Below are positions 1,127-50,063 of a stretch of DNA of 64,000 bases, one piece after another. Source of the stretch: Elusimicrobiota bacterium (GTDB lineage Bacteria > Elusimicrobiota > Elusimicrobia > UBA1565 > UBA9628); the NCBI GenBank assembly GCA_044450965.1, contig JBIOJO010000002.1, positions 21,246 through 85,245 on the forward strand, given 5' to 3'. Both the position numbers and the translations under genes were made by a program. A model generated the notes under the pieces. The model had not been told where the DNA came from. It searched no databases and saw only the letters and a program-made list of their open reading frames with translations. Within the stretch, counting starts at the first letter, position 1; the number at the start of each line of letters is the position of its first letter.

Positions 1127-3151
1127 ATGATCAGGTGGTTGCCTGCGGCGTTACTGCTGGCTTGCGGCGCCGCCCTCCTCCGGGGCGACTCCCCTCCGGC
1201 CATGCGGATCGGCGTGCTCAAGTTCGATACGGCCGACGCCGCGGTCAGCGGCGCGGCGGCCGGCGACCTGTTCAGCGCCGCCCTCTACCGGAATTTTCCC
1301 GGGCTCTCCGTGGTCGGGCCGGCTCAGGTGGAAGCCGTGATCTCGAGGGAGCATCTTCCCAGGGGGAACGAAAGGCTGGACCCGGAAGCGGCCGGGGCGC
1401 TGCAAAATGCCCTGGAGGTGGACGCGCTGGCCAGCGGGACCATCATGGCGTTGGAGACGAACGCCGACGGAGGGGGAGGGACGCTGATGATCGGCGCGCG
1501 CCTCATGAAGCTCCCCTCCGGCGAGATTCTCTGGGCGGACACGCGGACGGTCCGCATCGGCGCGCCGTTGCTCAAGAGAATGCTGGGCGCGCCGCGGGAA
1601 TCCGACGCGGTTCTTGCCGGCAAGCTCCTGGAGCTGGGGGTCTTCCAGCTGGTCCAGGATCTCGGCCAGCGCCTTCCCGAGGAGGCTCTCGCTCCCACGG
1701 ATCGCGGCGCCGGAGAACGCTCGGACGAGCGCTGCGCCCCGCCGGCCTTCTATGAAACCCTGGCGCGAGACGCCGACTGGTTTTACGGCGTCGGCAAGGA
1801 CCCGGACACCGACAAGGCGCGCGCGGCGGCCCTGGCCAATCTCGCGCTGCAGGCGACCGGCCGGGCCGACGGCCTGGCGACGGACACCGGCCTGCTCGCG
1901 GGATGGGAGCAGGACGACTTCCGGCGCTGCAAGGGGTTCAGCTACGTCATGGTCCGGATCGGGAAGGCGCGGGTGCGCGAGTTCCTCGCGCGGAACCCAG
2001 GCGCCGGCGCGAATACCGTGCTGCAGGATCTGAAGCGGCGCCTGGACGTCCTCGAGTCCAGCAATAGCCGGATTCTCGACCGTTCGGCGGAAAATCCCCG
2101 GCGGTCTTTGGCTCCCCTGCTCATGAAGGACACCATCGCGAGCGTGAAGGCCTTGATCGGCTCCGGCACCGCGCTGGATCAGGTCGTGCGCGCCAACGTC
2201 GCCAGCACCGAGATGATCTTCTCGGACCTGTTGCGCCCGCAGGCGCGCTGCGGGGGGACGAAGTGCCCGGGAGGGCCGACGCTGGAGCAGGCCGGCTTCA
2301 TCGCCAGGGCGCGCCGCAAGATCGCCGCCGGAACCATCGCCGTGGACGACGTCGTCTCGGTCCACGCCATCTTCGCCCATTATTCGAAGGCCGACGACGA
2401 TCGCGAATTCCTCGAGGCCGTCATTTCCCGGAAGCGCCCCGCGGCGCCATCGTCCGAGGATTACGAACACACCCGCGAACTGGCTTTCCCTTTGGCCTGG
2501 AGCGCGGCCTTGGCCCGCGACGACTGGGCCCGATTCTTCAAGTACTGCACGGATTACCTCCGGATGTTCCCGCAGGGCATCTACGCCGCGGCGGCGGAAA
2601 AAAACAGGGAGAACGCGGCCGATATCCTGATGCTGCGGAACATGGAGATCTCCGCCGCTCCCTCCAAATTAACCGCTGTGGGGAATTGGGTCAACGAATT
2701 CTTCTCGCCGCCCGTCAGCGACTTCCACGCGCGTCAGCAGGAAGAGATCAGCAAGGCCGTGCAGGAGGGCCTGGACTCATTGAGGACGTCGTCCGATCTT
2801 GAGGCGAGCGCACTGGTACCGGACGAGCCTCGGGGGCGTCCCGCCGATTCGGAGCCGATCTCCGCCGGGGAGGATTCCGCCGCGATCGCCAGGGGCCGCG
2901 AGCTTTACCAGCGGGACTGCGTGAGATGTCATGGAATCGAGGGAAAGGGCAGCCCCGCCGTGATCGCGATGTTCCGGCTGTCTCCCGAGGCCATGGATCT
3001 CACGCGCGTCAACCTGGATGCCTATTCTCCCGACGGCCTTTCGATCACGCTCAAAGACGGAAAGAAGGCCATGCCGGAATATAAAAAGGCCCTGAGCCGC
3101 GAGGACGCTCACGCCCTGCTGGAATATCTTCGTCGTCTCCGCGACGAGTAG
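1127..3151 (+). CDS. Exported multidomain protein: N-terminal LpoB/CsgG-like domain and C-terminal mono-haem c-type cytochrome domain
   Basis: Signal-like N-terminus MIRWLPAALLLACGAALL. RIGVLKFDTADAAVSG...LEVDALASGTIM resembles the LpoB/CsgG-like fold. C-terminus has CVRCHG (CxxCH) followed by Met-containing loops. GGAG lies upstream of the ATG. Confidence 0.55.
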   Translation: MIRWLPAALLLACGAALLRGDSPPAMRIGVLKFDTADAAVSGAAAGDLFSAALYRNFPGLSVVGPAQVEAVISREHLPRGNERLDPEAAGALQNALEVDALASGTIMALETNADGGGGTLMIGARLMKLPSGEILWADTRTVRIGAPLLKRMLGAPRESDAVLAGKLLELGVFQLVQDLGQRLPEEALAPTDRGAGERSDERCAPPAFYETLARDADWFYGVGKDPDTDKARAAALANLALQATGRADGLATDTGLLAGWEQDDFRRCKGFSYVMVRIGKARVREFLARNPGAGANTVLQDLKRRLDVLESSNSRILDRSAENPRRSLAPLLMKDTIASVKALIGSGTALDQVVRANVASTEMIFSDLLRPQARCGGTKCPGGPTLEQAGFIARARRKIAAGTIAVDDVVSVHAIFAHYSKADDDREFLEAVISRKRPAAPSSEDYEHTRELAFPLAWSAALARDDWARFFKYCTDYLRMFPQGIYAAAAEKNRENAADILMLRNMEISAAPSKLTAVGNWVNEFFSPPVSDFHARQQEEISKAVQEGLDSLRTSSDLEASALVPDEPRGRPADSEPISAGEDSAAIARGRELYQRDCVRCHGIEGKGSPAVIAMFRLSPEAMDLTRVNLDAYSPDGLSITLKDGKKAMPEYKKALSREDAHALLEYLRRLRDE

Positions 3152-3190
3152 CCGCCGGGCATCCCGGGCGATATTGTCTAGAATAGGCCA

Positions 3191-4579
3191 ATGAGGCTGG
3201 TCCTGGCGGCCGTCGCGGCGCTGTTCTTCATGCGGATGCTGGTCCACGTGGACCCGGACGTGTTCTTCCACCTCAAGGAGGGCGGACGCGTCCTGTCCGA
3301 ACATCGCCTGCCCCTGGTCGAGGAGTACTCATTCACTCGCGCCGGCAAGGCGATGGTCGCGACCGAGTGGCTGTCGGGCGCGGCGTTCGCCGCGGCCTTC
3401 CGTCTTGGAGGCTACCCGGCGGTCGTCGTCCTCAACGTCCTCCTGATCGTCGGCGCCCTGCGGCTGATGACGAAGATCTGGGACGAGGAAGGGCCTCCGG
3501 AGAGCGCGCGGGCGCTGTTGACGGCCCTGGCCGCCTTCGCCTTGCTGAGCTTCGCCCAGGCGAAGGTCCAGAACTTCACGTTTCTATTCTTCGCGCTGTA
3601 TTTATTTTGGGTCCGTCGTTGGGAGAAAGGCGCCCGCTGGGCGCCGTGGGCCATGGCGGGGGGGCTGGCGATCTGGGTGAACCTTCACGGCGGATTCACC
3701 TTGGGGTGGGTTCTTCTCGGGGCCGTGTGCGCCCTCGATTATTGGAAGGAAAAGCGCCCGAGCGCGCTCGCTCCGTGGGCGGCGGGCACTTTCGCGTGCT
3801 TCCTTCATCCGAACGGGGCGATGGCGTTCGTTTATCCTATTTGGTTCGTCTTCGCCGCGCCCGCCGCGCGTTCATTGATCGTCGAGTGGCGACCTCTCGG
3901 CTGGGCTTGGTCGTCGGTGCCGTATTTATTCGTGCTGGCGGCGGCGCTGTACTTCCGGATCGACCGGCTTCGTTCGCGGTTCCCGTGGGCGTTCCTGGGA
4001 TTCGTCTTTCTGGTGATGGGTCTGCGCGCCCGCAAGATGATGCCGTATTTCGCGTTGGTCGAATGCGCGGCGGCGGGGTTGGCTCTGGCGGGGACGAAAT
4101 CGAACGGCTCAAGGAAGAAGTGGATGCTGGCGGGGACCGTTACGGTCTTGGCGGCCATCACGGCGGTGGAACTCTCGGAAGCACGGGGCATGACCGCGTA
4201 CGGACCGATCTCCGATTGGGAAAGGGAATTTCCTCGCGAGGCCGTGCAAAAATATATCGCGCGCGACTCCGGCAAACGGATATTTCATGCCTACGAATGG
4301 GGCGGCTATTTGACGTACAAGCTCCCGCCCGGCGATCGTGTGTTTATCGACGGGCGGTTGGACCCTTATTGGACGCTCTTGACCGACTACGAGATCTTGA
4401 TGCACGCCGCCCCCGGGTGGGAGAAGCTGGCGGCGGATTACGGCATCGAGGCCGCGCTCCTGCCTCCGGCCTCGTCCTTGGCCCGCGCGCTGGACCGCGA
4501 TCCGGGCTGGAAGGCCGTCGGCACCGACGGCCGCGCGGCCCTGTACGAGCGCCGCGGCGTCGGACCCAAGAAGGACTAG
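3191..4579 (+). CDS. Polytopic integral membrane protein, function unknown
   Basis: 462 aa with about 10 hydrophobic helices and coding-like GC3. Motif YEWGGYLTYKLPPGDRVFIDGRLDPYW near the C-terminus. No family assigned by eye. Confidence 0.5.
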   Translation: MRLVLAAVAALFFMRMLVHVDPDVFFHLKEGGRVLSEHRLPLVEEYSFTRAGKAMVATEWLSGAAFAAAFRLGGYPAVVVLNVLLIVGALRLMTKIWDEEGPPESARALLTALAAFALLSFAQAKVQNFTFLFFALYLFWVRRWEKGARWAPWAMAGGLAIWVNLHGGFTLGWVLLGAVCALDYWKEKRPSALAPWAAGTFACFLHPNGAMAFVYPIWFVFAAPAARSLIVEWRPLGWAWSSVPYLFVLAAALYFRIDRLRSRFPWAFLGFVFLVMGLRARKMMPYFALVECAAAGLALAGTKSNGSRKKWMLAGTVTVLAAITAVELSEARGMTAYGPISDWEREFPREAVQKYIARDSGKRIFHAYEWGGYLTYKLPPGDRVFIDGRLDPYWTLLTDYEILMHAAPGWEKLAADYGIEAALLPPASSLARALDRDPGWKAVGTDGRAALYERRGVGPKKD

Positions 4580-4613
4580 GGCCTTTACCGCGGCCTCCCT
4601 GGGACTTCGCGCC

Positions 4614-5642
4614 GTGTCGCGGCGCGTCTTCAGGGACTACAATAGCGCTATGGGGAAAACCTCCGCCGTTCTGACCGCCTGGTTGCTGGCCGGGGCCGTC
4701 GCCGTTTCCGCGCAGATCGCCGCGCCGCGCGCTTCGTTCACGTCGCCCGTCGCGGCTCTTCCGGCCTTCGCCGAGCCGTCGGCCGCCGCGGCCGCCGGCT
4801 TGTCTCCGGCGCCCTTGAGCCCCGCGCTTCTCTCGGCCCCCGCGCTGGCGCCGGCGTTCGCCGCGCCGATGAGCGCCTCGGAGCCGAGGGCCCAGAAGCC
4901 CGAGAAGGCCGCCGCTCCCTCCGAGTTCCCGCGCCTCGTGGCCGATCTGATGAGCAACGACGCGGCTCGATCGAACGTCGCCGTCCAGGAACTGCTCAAG
5001 CTGAAAGAGGCGCATCTCAACGACCATCCCGATTCGGTGAAGACCCGGATCTTGGACCTCAAGCCCATGCAGATCCCGGCCGGGATGTACGAGGTCCAGG
5101 ACAAGGCCAAGAAGCTGCGTGACATGAAGAACAAGGAGTCCGAGGCCTGGCTGAAGGAGAACTCGGTGCCGGTCGTGGAGGACTACAAAGGCCGACAGCG
5201 CCCCGTGGACCACCATCACGAGGCGCGCGCGGCCTGGGAAGCCGACATCGACGACGCCTACACCCACCATTATTTCGACGACGAGATGCACGCGCGGCTC
5301 AAGGCCCTGCCCCGTGAGCAGTTCTACGCCGTGACCCGAGCGATGGGCCTGTTCTACGACCGCGACCAGTTCGGCGCCGGCCCGCATGACCCCAATCACC
5401 TGCCCGAGGACGTGCGCGGCATGGGCGACGATCCGTTCCGCAGCGTGGCCTGGCAGGTCCGCAAGCGCGGCGGCTACGACAAGACGGCCGTCCCGTTCGC
5501 GGAATTCAAATGGGCGCAGTTCTTCCGGGACCGCGTGAAGACCTACCCGACCAAAGCCGACTTCGAGAAAACCGTCGTCGAGGCGATGGCGCTGGTCCAC
5601 GACCCCGGCGCGAGCGATCTGCCCGGCTACAAATCCAAGTAG
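4614..5642 (+). CDS. Exported hypothetical protein with Ala/Pro-rich low-complexity N-region and His-rich segment
   Basis: Signal peptide MGKTSAVLTAWLLAGAVAVSAQ, then an APAL-rich linker, then a conserved-looking C-domain (VDHHHEARAAWEAD...FAEFKWAQFFRD). Confidence 0.45.
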   Translation: MSRRVFRDYNSAMGKTSAVLTAWLLAGAVAVSAQIAAPRASFTSPVAALPAFAEPSAAAAAGLSPAPLSPALLSAPALAPAFAAPMSASEPRAQKPEKAAAPSEFPRLVADLMSNDAARSNVAVQELLKLKEAHLNDHPDSVKTRILDLKPMQIPAGMYEVQDKAKKLRDMKNKESEAWLKENSVPVVEDYKGRQRPVDHHHEARAAWEADIDDAYTHHYFDDEMHARLKALPREQFYAVTRAMGLFYDRDQFGAGPHDPNHLPEDVRGMGDDPFRSVAWQVRKRGGYDKTAVPFAEFKWAQFFRDRVKTYPTKADFEKTVVEAMALVHDPGASDLPGYKSK

Positions 5643-5686
5643 GCCGGACCTCGGCAAGCCGGGCTCCGGTATGCCATAATCGCCGC

Positions 5687-6118
5687 ATGAGCGACGCTTT
5701 CGCGGCCGGATCGAGCGAAGACCCCAAAACCAAGGAAATCCTCATCGTCGACGACGACGAGGCGATGCTGAACCTGCTTCAGATCCTGGTGCGCCGCGAC
5801 GGCTTCCGCACCGACCTGGCCTCCACCGGGGACGACGCGCTGGAGAAGCTCAAGCGCCCGCATTCCGCTTTGATCCTGGACCTGATGCTGCCCGGCGGGA
5901 CCAGCGGCTTCGACGTGCTGGCGCGCCTGAGGACGTTCGAGGGGACGGTCCCTCCCGTCATCGTGGTGACCGCCCACGCGCAGTCCGCGGAAGTCCAGGC
6001 CGTCATGAAGGATCCCAACGTGGTCCTGTTCCTCTCCAAGCCCATCAACCAGGAAAAGCTGCTGGGGGCGCTCCATAAGGTCCTGAAGACCCGCTCGTCG
6101 CGCCCGCCGAAGACGTAG
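5687..6118 (+). CDS. Single-domain response regulator receiver
   Basis: MSDAFAAG...EILIVDDDEAML...ALILDLMLPGGTSG...FLSKPI. The internal ATG at 5687 was preferred over the track start (5510) because the receiver fold begins there. Confidence 0.75.
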   Translation: MSDAFAAGSSEDPKTKEILIVDDDEAMLNLLQILVRRDGFRTDLASTGDDALEKLKRPHSALILDLMLPGGTSGFDVLARLRTFEGTVPPVIVVTAHAQSAEVQAVMKDPNVVLFLSKPINQEKLLGALHKVLKTRSSRPPKT

Positions 6119-6123
6119 CCGCG

Positions 6124-6411
6124 CTACTTCTTCTTGAGCTTGGCTTTCTCGGCGCAGGGATCGCCGGGATAAGACACCAGCAAGGACGGATCGCTGGCCT
6201 TCAGAGGCGTGACCACCCGGCCGTCCTCCATCACCGTTCCGCCCTCAGGAGCCGCGGTCGGCGCGTTCTGCGGCGCGACGGCGATGAGCGGGGGGAGGGC
6301 CTCCACGACCGGCGGACGCGGCGTCGCCAGGCCCTTCGCGACCCAGCCGAACGCGAAGCCCCCCGCGGCGGCCCAGGCGGCGGTCCTCAAGGCGCGGCTG
6401 GCGGCGGTCAC
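6124..6411 (-). CDS. Small exported hypothetical protein (95 aa)
   Basis: Strong G/C third-position bias on the minus strand. Hydrophobic N-terminus AAWAAAGGFAFGWVA. No homolog recognised. Confidence 0.35.
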   Translation of the reverse strand: MTAASRALRTAAWAAAGGFAFGWVAKGLATPRPPVVEALPPLIAVAPQNAPTAAPEGGTVMEDGRVVTPLKASDPSLLVSYPGDPCAEKAKLKKK

Positions 6412-6475
6412 CCCGATAGTATGACCGCGCGGGCGGCCCCCGTCAAGCGCCGGGACGAATTGCTAAAATCCGCGG

Positions 6476-6892
6476 ATGAAGATGATCAAGGAATTCAAGG
6501 AATTCGCGATGAAGGGCAACGTCGTGGACATGGCCGTCGGCGTCGTCATCGGCGGCGCGTTCGGCCGGATCGTGACGTCGTTCCTCAACGACATGATGAT
6601 GCCGCCGCTGGGGATGCTCACCGGGGGCGTGGACTTCACCGACCACCGCCTGACGCTGAAGGCCGCCGAGGCCGGTGGGAAAGCCGTCACGCTCAACTAC
6701 GGGGCCTTCATCACGGCCGTGGTGGACTTCGCCGTCGTCGCCTTCGCGGTGTTCATGCTGGTCAAGGCCATGAACACGCTCAAGCGCGAGCAGCCGGCGG
6801 CGCCCAGCGAGAAGCAGTGCCCCGAGTGCCTGCTGACCATCCCGCTCCGGGCCAAGCGCTGCGGCCACTGCGCGCAGCCCCAGCCCTCCTGA
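6476..6892 (+). CDS. mscL: Large-conductance mechanosensitive channel MscL with C-terminal Cys4 zinc-ribbon extension
   Basis: [46 protein letters not shown] closely matches the MscL N-terminus and TM1. The C-terminus has CPEC-x11-CGHC. Confidence 0.85.
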
Positions 6893-8025
6893 GCTCCGCC
6901 CTCGCGCTCCTCTCTCTGCTGGGGAGCGCGGGCCTTTGGGTGTGCCTGGCGGTCACGCGGCGCCATTTCCGCGGCGCGCCGCCGGAGGCCTGCGCCCGGC
7001 CGATGACCTTGATCAAGCCGATCAAGGGCCGGGACGACGCCATGGAGGACGGCTTCCGCGCCATCGTGGCGGCGGATCCGGGCCGGACGCTGCAGGTGCT
7101 GATCGCGCTGGAGACGGCCGATGATCCGGCCTATCCCGTCGCGCGCGCGTTCGCGGACGCGCACCCGGACCGCGACATCGAGGTGGTGCTGACGGGCCCC
7201 TCCGGCCCGCGCATGGGCAAGATCCACAACATGATCGAGGCCGCGCCCCGCGCGAAGCACCGCGTCATCCTGTTTTCCGACGCCGACGTCCGCATCACGC
7301 CGACCCTCCTGTCCGACACGGCGCGGGCGTTCGACGCGGGCGCCGACGCCGTCTACGCTCTGCCCTACCACGCCTTCGTGTCCGGTCCCGGGGGCTGGCT
7401 GTTCCTGGTCGCGTTCAACCACTCGTTCTGCGTCCCGGTGGCGCTGACCTACCGCTTGGGAAAACTGCGCTCGTTCGCCGGGGCTTGGATGGGCTACACG
7501 AAGGAGGCGCTCGCGGCGATCGGGGGCCTGGAGCGCTTCGAGAACGCCATCGCCGAGGATTTCTCCTTGGGTTTGGCGGCGAGCCGGGCGGGCCTGCGCC
7601 AGGTCCTGCTGCGCGAACCCGTCCTGGTCCGCGAGACGGGGACTTCCGTGAGCGAGGCGTTCACTCACATCTCCAAATGGACCTCGATCATCTTCTGGAG
7701 CTGGCCCGCGCCGGTGATCGCGGCACCGTTCGCGAGTCCATGTTTGTTGGGATATATATCCATTGCGCTCGCCGTGACGCTGGGGCTTCCAGTGAAATTA
7801 TCGTTGTTCGCCGTGTCCGTCGCGGCGCTCTCCCGCATCGCCGTCGGCGTTCTTCAAGACGAGTTCCTCAGCGGCTCCCGCGCCCCATTCTGGAGCTACG
7901 CCTTGCTTCCCATCGCGGACCTGGGGGCGCTGATTTTCCTCCCGCTGGCGCTCCGTCGCACCGTCACCTGGCGGGGAAAAACATACCGGCTGACCTTGGG
8001 CGGGCACGCGGAAGTCGTCGCCTGA
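6826..8025 (+). CDS. Family-2 glycosyltransferase of the ceramide glucosyltransferase-like (GT21/HpnI-like) type. The start codon is uncertain: no in-frame ATG covers the N-terminal TM segment, and the possible GTG at 6826 lies inside mscL.
   Basis: TM anchor [27 protein letters not shown], then [13 protein letters not shown] motif FSDADVRI and [10 protein letters not shown]-terminal [13 protein letters not shown] resembles the WRxGRYRL tail of glucosylceramide synthases. Confidence 0.6.
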
Positions 8026-8054
8026 CCTGTCAATTTGCTAATCTCCTGATCCTC

Positions 8055-8960
8055 ATGGCGCGCACGATCCTCGTCGTTGACGACGACCAGACCTTGGTCG
8101 CTCCGCTGAAGGACGGCCTTGAGTCCGCGGGCTACCGCGTGGCCACGGCGTTCGACGCCGCCCAGGGAATCCTCCAGGCGCACGAGGCGCGCCCGGATCT
8201 GATCATCCTGGATTTCTACATGCCCGGCGGAGACGGCGGCTGGGTCTATGAGCGCCTGCGCGCCGCGCCGGACACTATGGAAATCCCGGTCGTCTTTTCG
8301 ACCGGCCTGACCTTGGAGGAGCTCCGCGAGAAGGTGAAGTCCGGCTCCCGCACGTATTTCCTGAAGAAGCCCGTGGGCTTCAACGGTATTCTCTCGATCG
8401 TGAACCAGGTTCTGGGCGAGGACCGCCGCGCCATCATGGGCGACCCCGAACTGCCGAAAACCACGGGCACCCCGCCGCCGCCCCCGGCTCCGGCGCCCGC
8501 CGCGGCCGCTCCCATCGTCCGGCCGAAGGCGCGGTTCAACGAGTTCGACGTGCGCGTCACCTACGCCGATACCGACAAGCTGGGCATCATCTACTACGCG
8601 AACTACCTGAAGTACTTCGAGCAGGGCCGCACCGAGCTGATGCGCGGCCTGGGCGTGCGCTACCGGGACCTGGAGATCACCCGCAAGCTGTTCCTGCCCG
8701 CCGTGGAGGCGCGCGTGGAGTACAAGGCGCCCAGCCGCTACGACGACCTGCTGACGGTGCGCACCTGGATCGCGGAGATGGGCAAGGCCAGCATCTCATT
8801 CGAGTGCGACGTGGTGGACAAGGACCTGGGCGGCAAGCTCTGCGCCCGTGGATTTTCCCGCCACGCCATCGTCAACGACCTGTGGCGCACCACCCGCATC
8901 CCCGAGGACCTGCGCGCCCTGCTGAGCCCGTACGTGGGCCTAGGACCTTCCGCGAAGTAG
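8055..8960 (+). CDS. Response-regulator receiver domain fused to a YbgC/4HBT-type acyl-CoA thioesterase (hotdog fold)
   Basis: N-terminus MARTILVVDDDQ...LIILDFYMPGGDG...YFLKKP is a receiver. A Pro-rich linker PPPPPAPAPAAAAP follows. FNEFDVRVTYADTDKLGIIYYANYLKYFEQGRTELM aligns with YbgC [31 protein letters not shown], catalytic Asp included. Confidence 0.8.
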   Translation: MARTILVVDDDQTLVAPLKDGLESAGYRVATAFDAAQGILQAHEARPDLIILDFYMPGGDGGWVYERLRAAPDTMEIPVVFSTGLTLEELREKVKSGSRTYFLKKPVGFNGILSIVNQVLGEDRRAIMGDPELPKTTGTPPPPPAPAPAAAAPIVRPKARFNEFDVRVTYADTDKLGIIYYANYLKYFEQGRTELMRGLGVRYRDLEITRKLFLPAVEARVEYKAPSRYDDLLTVRTWIAEMGKASISFECDVVDKDLGGKLCARGFSRHAIVNDLWRTTRIPEDLRALLSPYVGLGPSAK

Positions 8961-40222: not shown

Positions 40223-40306
40223 GCGCGGGTGGTGGAACTGGCAGACACGTACGCTTGAGGTGCGTATGCCCGAAAGGGTTTGGGGGTTCAAGTCCCCCCT
40301 CGCGCA
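40223..40306 (+). tRNA. tRNA-Leu (anticodon GAG), long variable arm, no encoded CCA
   Basis: Acceptor GCGCGGG/CTCGCGC (G6-U67 wobble), anticodon stem TACGC/GCGTA with loop TTGAGGT, variable arm TGCCCGAAAGGGTTT, T-arm GGGGG-TTCAAGT-CCCCC. Confidence 0.85.
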
Positions 40307-40326
40307 AAATTATTCCTCATCGAAGA

Positions 40327-40363
40327 AAGCCCCGGACCGAGACGATCGGCCCGGGGCTTTTTT
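40327..40363 (+). terminator. Rho-independent terminator after tRNA-Leu
   Basis: Stem about 11 bp (gccccgg.accga / tcggcccggggc) followed by TTTTTT. Confidence 0.6.
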
Positions 40364-40389
40364 CTTCTCCTTCGGCGACGGAACCTTCC

Positions 40390-40424
40390 TTGACGACGGG
40401 CTCCTCCGGGTCTATACTCCGAAG
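40390..40424 (+). promoter_or_regulatory. Canonical sigma70-type promoter TTGACG-17-TATACT, with the ATG about 7 nt downstream (leaderless or near-leaderless transcript)
   Basis: ttgacg(40390-40395), 17-nt spacer, tatact(40413-40418), ATG at 40425. Confidence 0.5.
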
Positions 40425-41168
40425 ATGAGCCTACTGCCCGCCCTCCTGCTCGCGCTGGCCGCCGCTCCGGTTTTCGCCGCGCCGGCCCCGCCCGCCCCGT
40501 CCGATCCGCCCTTGGTGGCGGCGGTCAAAGGCGGGGATCTGACCGGTTTGAAGGCGGCGCTCGCCGGGGGCGCCGCGGTCGGCGACAAGGACCGGTACGG
40601 GTGGACGGCCGTGATGTGGTCCATCGGTCACGGCGAAGCCGCGATGACGAAGGCCCTTCTCGACGCGGGCGCCGATCCGGCGCCGAAGGACGCGCCGAAC
40701 TACAACGCGATGATCGAGGCCGCCAAGGGCGGGCGCTTCGACGTCGTGCCCCTTCTGGCCGCGAAAGGCTTCTCCTGCGCGGCGAAGGACGAGCTCGGCA
40801 TTCCGGCTCTGTCCTACGCGGTCTCGCAGGTTTCGACGGGGACGGCCCTGGCTCTTCTCGCCTGCAAGGCGGACATCGACGCCAAGGACGCGAACGGGTT
40901 CACGCCGCTGATCCGCGCGGTCCAGGCCGGACAGGCGGCGGAAGTGAATCTTCTGATCGCGAAGGGCGCGGCGCTGAACGCGCGCGACGCGCAGGGCTAC
41001 ACCGCGCTGATGTGGGCCGCGCACAACGCCTTCGTCGACGCGGCGCGGGCGCTGCTGGCGGCGAAGGCCGATCCCCGGATCAAGGGAAAGAACGGCCAAT
41101 CCGCGCGCGACATATCCCAGAAGCGCGGCAGCGCCGGAGTCTCGGCGCTCCTGCCCGCGACGCCTTAA
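40425..41168 (+). CDS. Exported ankyrin-repeat protein (about 5 ANK repeats)
   Basis: Signal MSLLPALLLALAAAPVFAAPAP. Repeats such as GWTAVMWSIGHGEAAMTKALLDAGADP and NGFTPLIRAVQAGQAAEVNLLIAKGAALNARDAQGYTALMWAA. Confidence 0.75.
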   Translation: MSLLPALLLALAAAPVFAAPAPPAPSDPPLVAAVKGGDLTGLKAALAGGAAVGDKDRYGWTAVMWSIGHGEAAMTKALLDAGADPAPKDAPNYNAMIEAAKGGRFDVVPLLAAKGFSCAAKDELGIPALSYAVSQVSTGTALALLACKADIDAKDANGFTPLIRAVQAGQAAEVNLLIAKGAALNARDAQGYTALMWAAHNAFVDAARALLAAKADPRIKGKNGQSARDISQKRGSAGVSALLPATP

Positions 41169-49959: not shown

Positions 49960-50063
49960 AATCCGGCCGCCTGATTCCGCTGACAATCGCGAGATTGTCC
50001 CCTGCGCGGGCGCGGTTACACTTAATAGCAGGCCCTCTCTCCCTGCCCCGCGCGGAGGCGCTT

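Follow-up and report, generated by a model that had tools for sequence, protein, structure and literature searches.

A conserved CTG codon overlapping the mscL stop as the candidate start of a GT21-type glycosyltransferase in Elusimicrobiota

Where does translation of a membrane-anchored enzyme begin when no ordinary start codon precedes its anchor? This question is raised by a 64,000-nt stretch of a metagenome-assembled genome (MAG) of an Elusimicrobiota bacterium, here called the window, in which mscL is followed by a gene for a GT21-family lipid glycosyltransferase (GT) and then by one for a thioesterase with an N-terminal receiver domain (REC-thioesterase). The hydrophobic anchor of the GT starts at CTG 6889, overlapping the mscL stop codon (cCTGAgc), and between that stop and the start of the anchor the GT frame contains no ATG, GTG or TTG. 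Comparison with relatives shows this CTG to be conserved, and leads us to conclude that the N-terminus of the GT very likely lies at or next to 6889, anchor included, and that CUG is probably the initiating codon in the window's clade. The original prediction had remarked on the missing canonical start, which is borne out here together with a genuine, conserved anchor. It had also placed the only upstream candidates inside mscL, which holds for the canonical codons (GTG 6817 and GTG 6826) but overlooks CTG 6889. A further in-frame GTG, at 6940, which had not been named there, was rejected because it lies within the anchor and is GCC in most relatives. No Shine–Dalgarno (SD) sequence precedes any of the start candidates in the window.

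Existing annotations place the start elsewhere. The NCBI annotation begins the GT at GTG 6826 (P0001, 399 amino acids (aa)), giving a 67-nt overlap with mscL, and begins the ortholog in locus L001 at the internal ATG that corresponds to 7003 (P0040). The callers of JGI, ENA and Logan have likewise begun at least 12 relatives at this internal ATG, yielding proteins of 339–342 aa that start with MTLIKP. The predicted N-termini are (f)Met-SSALALLSLLGSAGLWVCLAVTR from CTG 6889 (reading SSALALL...), MPADHPAPG... from GTG 6826 and MTLIKPIK... from ATG 7003.

To compare the locus, 42 locus records (L numbers) were gathered, comprising 19 GTDB genomes, 10 metagenomes and 13 exact-protein look-ups; P0001 and P0081 of the window are 100% matches to NCBI MAG proteins. 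The GT is present in 41 of the 42 records, a few of which are duplicates (L023 repeats L022), and L042 contains the thioesterase only. The L001 contig stops within the GT, so that the gene 3' of it is not visible there. Linkage to mscL was counted among the ~30 loci with enough sequence upstream of the GT, and promoters and starts were scanned in a pooled 365 kb and, in the window, over 65 long open reading frames (ORFs) with high GC content at third codon positions (GC3). Gene identities, anchor conservation, the homologous start position, promoter geometry and synteny were read directly from these sequences.

The anchor is present in essentially all GT orthologs, and distant orthologs start with an ATG a few codons before it. 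Over the 37 codons from the CTG position to the internal ATG, the 12 close loci show neither indels nor stops, and the ratio of nonsynonymous to synonymous substitution rates (dN/dS) is 0.38–0.45 in the GT frame compared with 1.4–1.7 in the two shifted frames; in the following 38 codons of the GT it is 0.19–0.29. Because selection is purifying in frame and indels and stops are lacking, we conclude that the anchor is translated. Orthologs thus retain the anchor, and the anchorless start at ATG 7003 that would have spoken against the original prediction is not what they display. The Met at 7003 is equally conserved in orthologs with an obvious upstream ATG start, which marks it as an internal residue.

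The start position itself varies in a restricted manner. The codon homologous to 6889 is CTG in nine loci (the window, L001, L021, L022/23, L024, L035, L036, L037 and L038), TTG in L020 and L025, and GTG in L002, L040 and L041, and L039, L003, L018 and most distant orthologs have an ATG there or close by. Hence, outgroups have ATG or GTG at the start of the GT and the window's clade has CTG or TTG. The column is NTG in 11 of 11 CTG/TTG loci, and other conserved Leu columns also contain CTC and CTT; with NTG making up 64% of Leu codons, this gives P ~0.007 under the assumption, not fully valid, that the loci are independent. Upstream of the GT, eight of the nine distinct CTG/TTG loci that lack mscL have no in-frame ATG, GTG or TTG, and in four loci (L021, L022, L024 and L036) in-frame stops occur 3–10 codons upstream of the CTG.

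Some further observations concern this codon. The GT ORF starts with NTGA in 14 loci (the window, L001, L002, L020–L025, L035–L038, L040 and L041), as CTGA in nine, TTGA in two and GTGA in three; the embedded TGA is kept even where no gene lies upstream, and mscL also starts with ATGA. Four additional proteins (P0009, P0010, P0014 and P0020) are probably further CTG cases. In L038 (contig_235918_np1212, 3001–4964), the GT and the REC-thioesterase are fragmented, with a 292-aa GT and a thioesterase without REC, which probably reflects frameshift errors of a nanopore assembly and not biology.

How an mRNA might present such a codon to the ribosome is suggested by the sequence in front of it. In all nine distinct mscL-less CTG/TTG loci, an extended −10 element (TGnTAnnnT, in the variants TGcTAAAAT, TGgTAAGAT and TGgTAGACT) lies 6–8 nt upstream of the CTG or TTG, a spacer that implies a leader of 0–2 nt, and the same geometry precedes the GT where it has GTG (L040 and L041) or ATG (L039). 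The GT mRNA of mscL-less relatives therefore has the looks of a leaderless transcript starting with CUG or UUG. Similar geometry is found throughout the window: 8 of the 65 ORFs scanned have a TAnnnT that begins exactly 12 nt ahead of the first start codon, against 0.09 expected, and the pooled 365 kb show a sharp peak at a spacer of 6 nt (25 for ATG, 8 for GTG). It also occurs at a REC gene (5687), a 477-aa gene (10406, minus strand) and the isoleucyl-tRNA synthetase (IleRS) gene (14365), and SD-led starts (GGAGG) exist in the window too, mostly at internal genes. Judged by this pattern, leaderless geometry is the genome's normal way of starting operons, as in the leaderless mRNAs of Deinococcus, Mycobacterium and Caulobacter (PMC4007540, PMC8459731). 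In those bacteria leaderless starts are essentially AUG or GUG, whereas here CTG or TTG is kept clade-wide for one gene; mscL and the GT of relatives share the −10 placement of leaderless genes, but the GT of the clade lacks their 5'-terminal AUG or GUG. In the literature searched, no description of leaderless usage in Elusimicrobiota was found.

Leaderless-type starts in the window include 3191, 4650, 5687, 6411 (minus strand), 6476, 10406 (minus strand), 14365, 21289 (minus strand)/21324, 40425, 43586 (minus strand)/43714, 45618 and 61721, and several of these form back-to-back divergent pairs.

How, then, does mscL come to lie in front of the GT? In alignment A3, the intergenic region 6412–6475 of the window lines up collinearly with the sequence that precedes the GT in L036, L020, L025 and L021, sharing the start of a divergent gene, the −10 and −35 boxes of that gene and the plus-strand extended −10, and the ATG of mscL occupies the exact column of the CTG or TTG of the relatives' GT. 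It follows that mscL sits between the promoter's +1 position and the first codon of the GT. The closest relatives (L035, L020 and L036) have the GT directly behind the same promoter, without mscL, and a tree of the GT places the window with L035, L020 and L025, all mscL-less, and L001 at the base. Either mscL is ancestral and was precisely lost several times, or the allele was moved by homologous recombination.

At the other end of mscL, the junction TCCTGAGC is the same in the window as in L001, although the proteins differ by 33% (identity is 67% for MscL and 66% for the GT). In L002, an FGE-sulfatase-like gene (5213–6004) ends on the corresponding TGA, giving GTGA, and by ORF coordinates other pairs in the window overlap by 4 nt at 720, 24782 and 63048. 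Termination–reinitiation needs an overlap or a very short distance between genes (PMC6728339, PMC10666635, PMC12548453), and the known stop/start overlap pairs with ATGA or GTGA (−4 nt; Huber et al. 2019, PMC6728339; PMC10666635; reviewed in PMC12548453) have the same 4-nt geometry and need no SD. The NTGA overlap at 6889–6892 has this geometry, but its start is CTG, unlike the canonical overlapping start of the known pairs, and the coupling is deduced from it. We found no description of CTG as the overlapping start of a coupled pair in the literature on such pairs, and no annotation pipeline accepts it. An internal promoter in mscL that would yield a leaderless GT transcript was rejected, since the last 230 nt of mscL contain no TAnnnT.

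Taken together, we slightly favour a model in which mscL mRNA is leaderless and the GT is made by termination–reinitiation at CUG 6889, so that the translational coupling or re-initiation at the mscL stop put forward in the original prediction would still be the best explanation for the window. The locus would form two transcription units, with mscL and the GT in the first and the REC-YbgC thioesterase in the second. The extended −10 in front of mscL would direct an mRNA beginning at or next to ATG 6476. On this mRNA, mscL would be translated first, and the ribosome terminating at UGA 6890–6892 would re-initiate on the overlapping CUG 6889–6891 with initiator tRNA, producing a lipid glycosyltransferase of the GT21 type with a membrane signal-anchor as its first 26 residues. 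CUG would mark the ancestral start position, used in relatives where a leaderless transcript opens with the GT; with mscL placed exactly between +1 and the GT codon, as in the window and L001, the leaderless CUG start would have become a coupled CUGA start. Being weak, the codon would probably limit GT synthesis and, in the window, keep it proportional to translation of mscL. The second unit would have its own extended −10 promoter and a leader of 1–3 nt. For the clade as a whole, we put at about even the chance that the GT is stably translated from the 5'-terminal CUG or UUG of a leaderless mRNA, with the codon doubling as a CUGA re-initiation site behind mscL or the FGE-like gene.

Table 1. 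Features of the mscL–GT–thioesterase locus (window coordinates)
Feature	Position	Strand	Description
Sigma-70-type promoter TTGACG-17-CATACT	6418..6446	−	Promoter of divergent 95-aa gene; promoter scan, 3 sites vs 0.3 expected
Extended −10 TGcTAAAAT	6461..6469	+	6 nt before mscL ATG; orthologous to the element before the GT CTG/TTG in mscL-less relatives
mscL	6476..6892	+	Predicted leaderless, 138 aa; Pfam MscL E=4e-43; NF001843 169.8 vs equivalog cutoff 142
GTG 6817 and GTG 6826	6817..6828	+	Sole canonical in-frame candidates 5' of the anchor, both within mscL (caG TGc, gaG TGc)
CTGA junction	6889..6892	+	CTG 6889–6891, putative GT start; TGA 6890–6892, mscL stop; 4-nt overlap
GT21-family lipid glycosyltransferase	6889..8025	+	378 aa from CTG, stop included (stop codon 8023–8025); frame differs from mscL
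Internal ATG	7003..7005	+	Met of conserved PMTLIKP motif, after the anchor; wrongly taken as start by many gene callers in relatives
Extended −10 TGcTAATCT	8036..8044	+	10 nt before thioesterase ATG; thioesterase's own promoter
REC + 4HBT (YbgC/FadM-type acyl-CoA thioesterase)	8055..8960	+	301 aa; start ATG 8055, not 8046

Several points weigh against this model. Leu, Val and Met are interchangeable hydrophobic residues, and variation at the start column alone is no proof of a start codon; the loci also share ancestry, so that counts across them overstate independence. Transcription start sites and the initiating codon, like re-initiation and any lipid function, are deduced from sequence alone. 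The spacer before the CTG or TTG of the GT is 6–8 nt, compared with the sharp 6 nt of ATG genes, and short leaders also lower the translation of leaderless mRNAs. Wherever CUG has been tried on leaderless mRNAs, it has proved a very poor start. In E. coli, CUG and UUG gave no leaderless expression, and changing AUG to CUG drastically cut leaderless expression in Caulobacter (PMC8459731); among 916 leaderless genes of D. deserti there is none with a CTG start (PMC4007540). The 365 kb scanned yielded no second convincing case of a leaderless CTG gene, so that general use of CTG starts in these genomes was rejected and the feature is specific to the GT gene; a CTG candidate of the window, at 49971, proved to be an SD-led start at ATG 50064, and a tRNA scan returned nothing unusual. 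A conserved non-canonical start codon used for control is the AUU of infC, which resembles the GT case in that a weak start is kept by selection in one gene but differs in being SD-led, the GT start being leaderless or re-initiating in our model. Finally, the window does offer a canonical codon, GTG 6826, which NCBI has used.

This GTG is the basis of the main competing explanation, according to which the GT starts at 6826 (or 6817) by independent internal initiation within mscL, as a 399-aa protein with a 21-residue Pro/Arg-rich extension and a 67-nt overlap. GTG is a canonical start codon, 6826 is the call of PGAP (P0001), the GTG candidate is preceded at 12 nt by a weak purine stretch (GAGAAG), and L001 has kept both GTGs, at 5878 and 5887. 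MscL of the window, however, carries a C-terminal, zinc-ribbon-like CPEC-x11-CGHC tail (nt 6812–6871, aa 113–132; weak Pfam UPF0547 match, E=0.002) that is conserved in L001 (mscL 5522–5956), and the Cys codons of its CPEC generate GTG 6817 and 6826 in the GT frame; as these GTGs are forced by mscL, their conservation is uninformative about the GT. The extension has no counterpart in any mscL-less ortholog, several of which have in-frame stops there, and the NCBI pipeline is not consistent, as it begins the L001 ortholog at the internal ATG. Between the window and L001, the differences per codon position in the overlap (6817–6888) are 0.25/0.21/0.29, compared with 0.29/0.19/0.30 in the rest of mscL, a comparison of low power that gives no sign of a second constraint. 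Moreover, GTG 6826 is without a real SD, and its distance of 63 nt upstream of the stop is too great for re-initiation to be efficient (PMC10666635). We therefore regard a start at GTG as unlikely but deserving of attention, and consider re-initiation at CUG instead of GTG 6826 in the window to be somewhat better than an even bet.

Much less probable is a start at ATG 7003, which would give an anchorless enzyme and leave the anchor as an untranslated relic in the clade, as the 339–342-aa calls imply. This is the first ATG of the frame, it is conserved in nearly all loci, Prodigal-type callers pick its equivalent in at least 12 relatives, and a GGAGG lies upstream of it in the window. Yet its Met is no less conserved where a clear upstream ATG serves as the start, and the anchor, which is under in-frame purifying selection and free of indels, is confidently modelled as a helix. 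An SD-led start at this ATG was rejected, as 15 nt separate the GGAGG from it and only 2 of 17 loci have an SD-like match, the other 15 lacking one. It is highly improbable that the missing start stems from a mistake of assembly or an erroneous indel, from decay into a pseudogene, or from programmed −1 frameshifting that fuses MscL to the GT. The data do come from MAGs, and the GT frame is open across the whole of mscL, as is common in DNA of 70% GC. However, the same CTG and frame recur in 10 distinct assemblies from different projects, which dismisses an assembly error, and the dN/dS of 0.19–0.29 in the GT core is at odds with decay; a fusion was discarded because the 3' end of mscL has no slippery heptamer and relatives make the GT without any mscL.

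A different question is whether mscL, the GT gene and the gene of the REC-thioesterase belong to a single envelope-lipid module under common regulation, in which membrane tension is coupled to the synthesis of glycolipids, as the original prediction proposed. Its three genes are real and adjacent, as confirmed by Pfam and NCBIfam matches and by coordinates; they are co-oriented and tightly packed, and in the window and L001 mscL overlaps the GT and probably shares a transcript with it. The synteny check, however, speaks against the three-gene unit: only 2 of the ~30 informative loci, the window and L001, have mscL in front of the GT, and the gene is missing at this site in ~28 of 30, including the closest relatives. 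The GT and the REC-thioesterase are more often together. They are adjacent in L002, L004/29, L006, L018, L020, L022, L024, L025, L035, L037 and L038 and one gene apart in L021, and thus in most close relatives and three more distant lineages, and in L041 (1519–2359) 4HBT and REC are separate neighbouring genes next to the GT. Against a unit of these two stand the GT loci without REC-thioesterase (L005, L007, L009–L013, L015 and L016), and the more distant L042 (3134–4788), where the REC-thioesterase lies without GT21 beside FabA-like/ApeP-like dehydratase genes. The thioesterase is also far more widespread than the GT, with 344 homologs, and its thioesterase domain (93–97%) surpasses the GT in conservation. 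Part of the linkage goes back to a backbone of ParB-like, DeoC, AI-2E transporter and IleRS genes that is itself conserved. In addition, the thioesterase appears to have its own promoter, whose TGcTAATCT is conserved 8–10 nt before the ATG in L020, L022, L024, L025, L035, L037, L002 and L021; this spacing implies a leader of 1–3 nt, unlike the sharp 6-nt spacing elsewhere. The three-gene module is thus improbable, and the pairing of GT and thioesterase stands as a frequent adjacency but not as a single unit. The GT and the thioesterase may share a lipid function; a role of mscL in it is not supported.

The thioesterase passes the TIGR00051 subfamily cutoff (82.9 vs 68.7), shares the hotdog fold of 1z54, 5v10 and 1s5u, and carries the catalytic Asp in its YADTDKLGIIYY motif (DTDKLGIIYY as read from the sequence). 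It resembles YbgC/FadM thioesterases in these respects and differs from them by an N-terminal receiver domain (PF00072, E=8e-18) with an intact phospho-acceptor site, in which D9–D11, the phospho-acceptor D53 (LIILD), an FST motif and KKP were read from the sequence. It is not the tol-pal-associated YbgC equivalog, as it scores below the TIGR02799 cutoff (89.1 vs 141.35 bits). The dehydratase neighbours in L042 and the split 4HBT and REC genes of L041 hint that the fusion may act in fatty-acyl metabolism.

The GT matches Pfam Glyco_transf_21 with E=3e-22 (79.2 bits, gathering score 21.7). Its best bacterial family is HpnI (TIGR03472), the bacteriohopanetetrol glucosamine glycosyltransferase, which it matches over its full length (3–372 of 378; E=1e-44) but with 152.5 bits against an equivalog cutoff of 310; it is therefore not an HpnI equivalog, and no hopanoid genes were found near the GT in the neighbourhoods examined. 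Residues 32–377 align with human ceramide glucosyltransferase (UGCG, CAZy GT21; PDB 26qf, E=6e-21), the match beginning only after the human enzyme's own N-terminal segment. The DDPA, SDAD and AED motifs align with the human enzyme, D79, D131, D133 and D224 are invariant, and the C-terminus aligns with WRTGRYRLRCGGTAEEI of 26qf and keeps the WRxxxYRLxxGG motif, so that the likeness to the human C-terminus noted from the sequence is real. An AlphaFold model built with 45 homologs (predicted local distance difference test (pLDDT) 94.5, predicted template modelling score (pTM) 0.91) shows an N-terminal helix, a GT-A domain and a C-terminal helical transmembrane bundle, with the signal-anchor helix at aa 2–26 (nt 6892–6966; pLDDT 97–98). 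In a Foldseek search against a PDB release older than the ceramide glucosyltransferase entries, the nearest solved folds were membrane GT2 enzymes. The GT thus shares with UGCG the Pfam family, the acidic and C-terminal motifs and the arrangement of N-terminal anchor and C-terminal bundle; the two differ in that the match is distant and the (Q/R)xxRW motif reads HISKW here, K standing where R would be expected. The genomic neighbourhood of the GT showed no sphingolipid genes and points to no acceptor lipid.

Upstream of mscL lies a divergent gene of 95–97 aa without a Pfam or NCBIfam match, which shares a 64–66-nt control region with the GT or mscL (6124–6411 on the minus strand of the window, L020 4647–4934, L035 827–1114, L036 399–692). 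In the window it encodes 95 aa and has leaderless geometry, with its GTG 6411 located 6 nt from its −10, in a region that alignment A3 shows to be collinear with that of relatives; its place is taken by a PMT_2-like glycosyltransferase in L001 and L021. Elsewhere in the window, the ParB-like gene probably starts at ATG 4650 instead of GTG 4614 of the longest ORF. A tRNA-Leu(GAG) gene (40223–40306) overlaps the 5' end of a long ORF (40260–41168, longest-ORF start GTG 40260), for which ATG 40425, preceded by TAnnnT and 6 nt, is the likelier start.

The three proteins of this locus are ordinary and already annotated; what is noteworthy is the conserved CTG/TTG start and its apparent reuse as a CTGA re-initiation site, which on consistent comparative evidence would be a variant of known initiation modes. 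For annotation, the GT is currently treated inconsistently, started inside mscL by NCBI and, because no pipeline allows CTG, shortened by 38 residues in at least 12 relatives, which thereby lose the membrane anchor. For genome scans, the adjacency of mscL and GT should not be taken as a functional lipid module. If our model is correct, this gene would represent natural, evolutionarily stable CUG/UUG initiation on a leaderless mRNA, as well as a natural experiment in which the same codon also works within a 4-nt stop/start overlap, and would bear on start-codon choice by 70S/leaderless and re-initiating ribosomes outside model organisms. It would then imply either relaxed start-codon discrimination in 70S/leaderless initiation, or a weak codon selected as a throttle or switch for a lipid enzyme.

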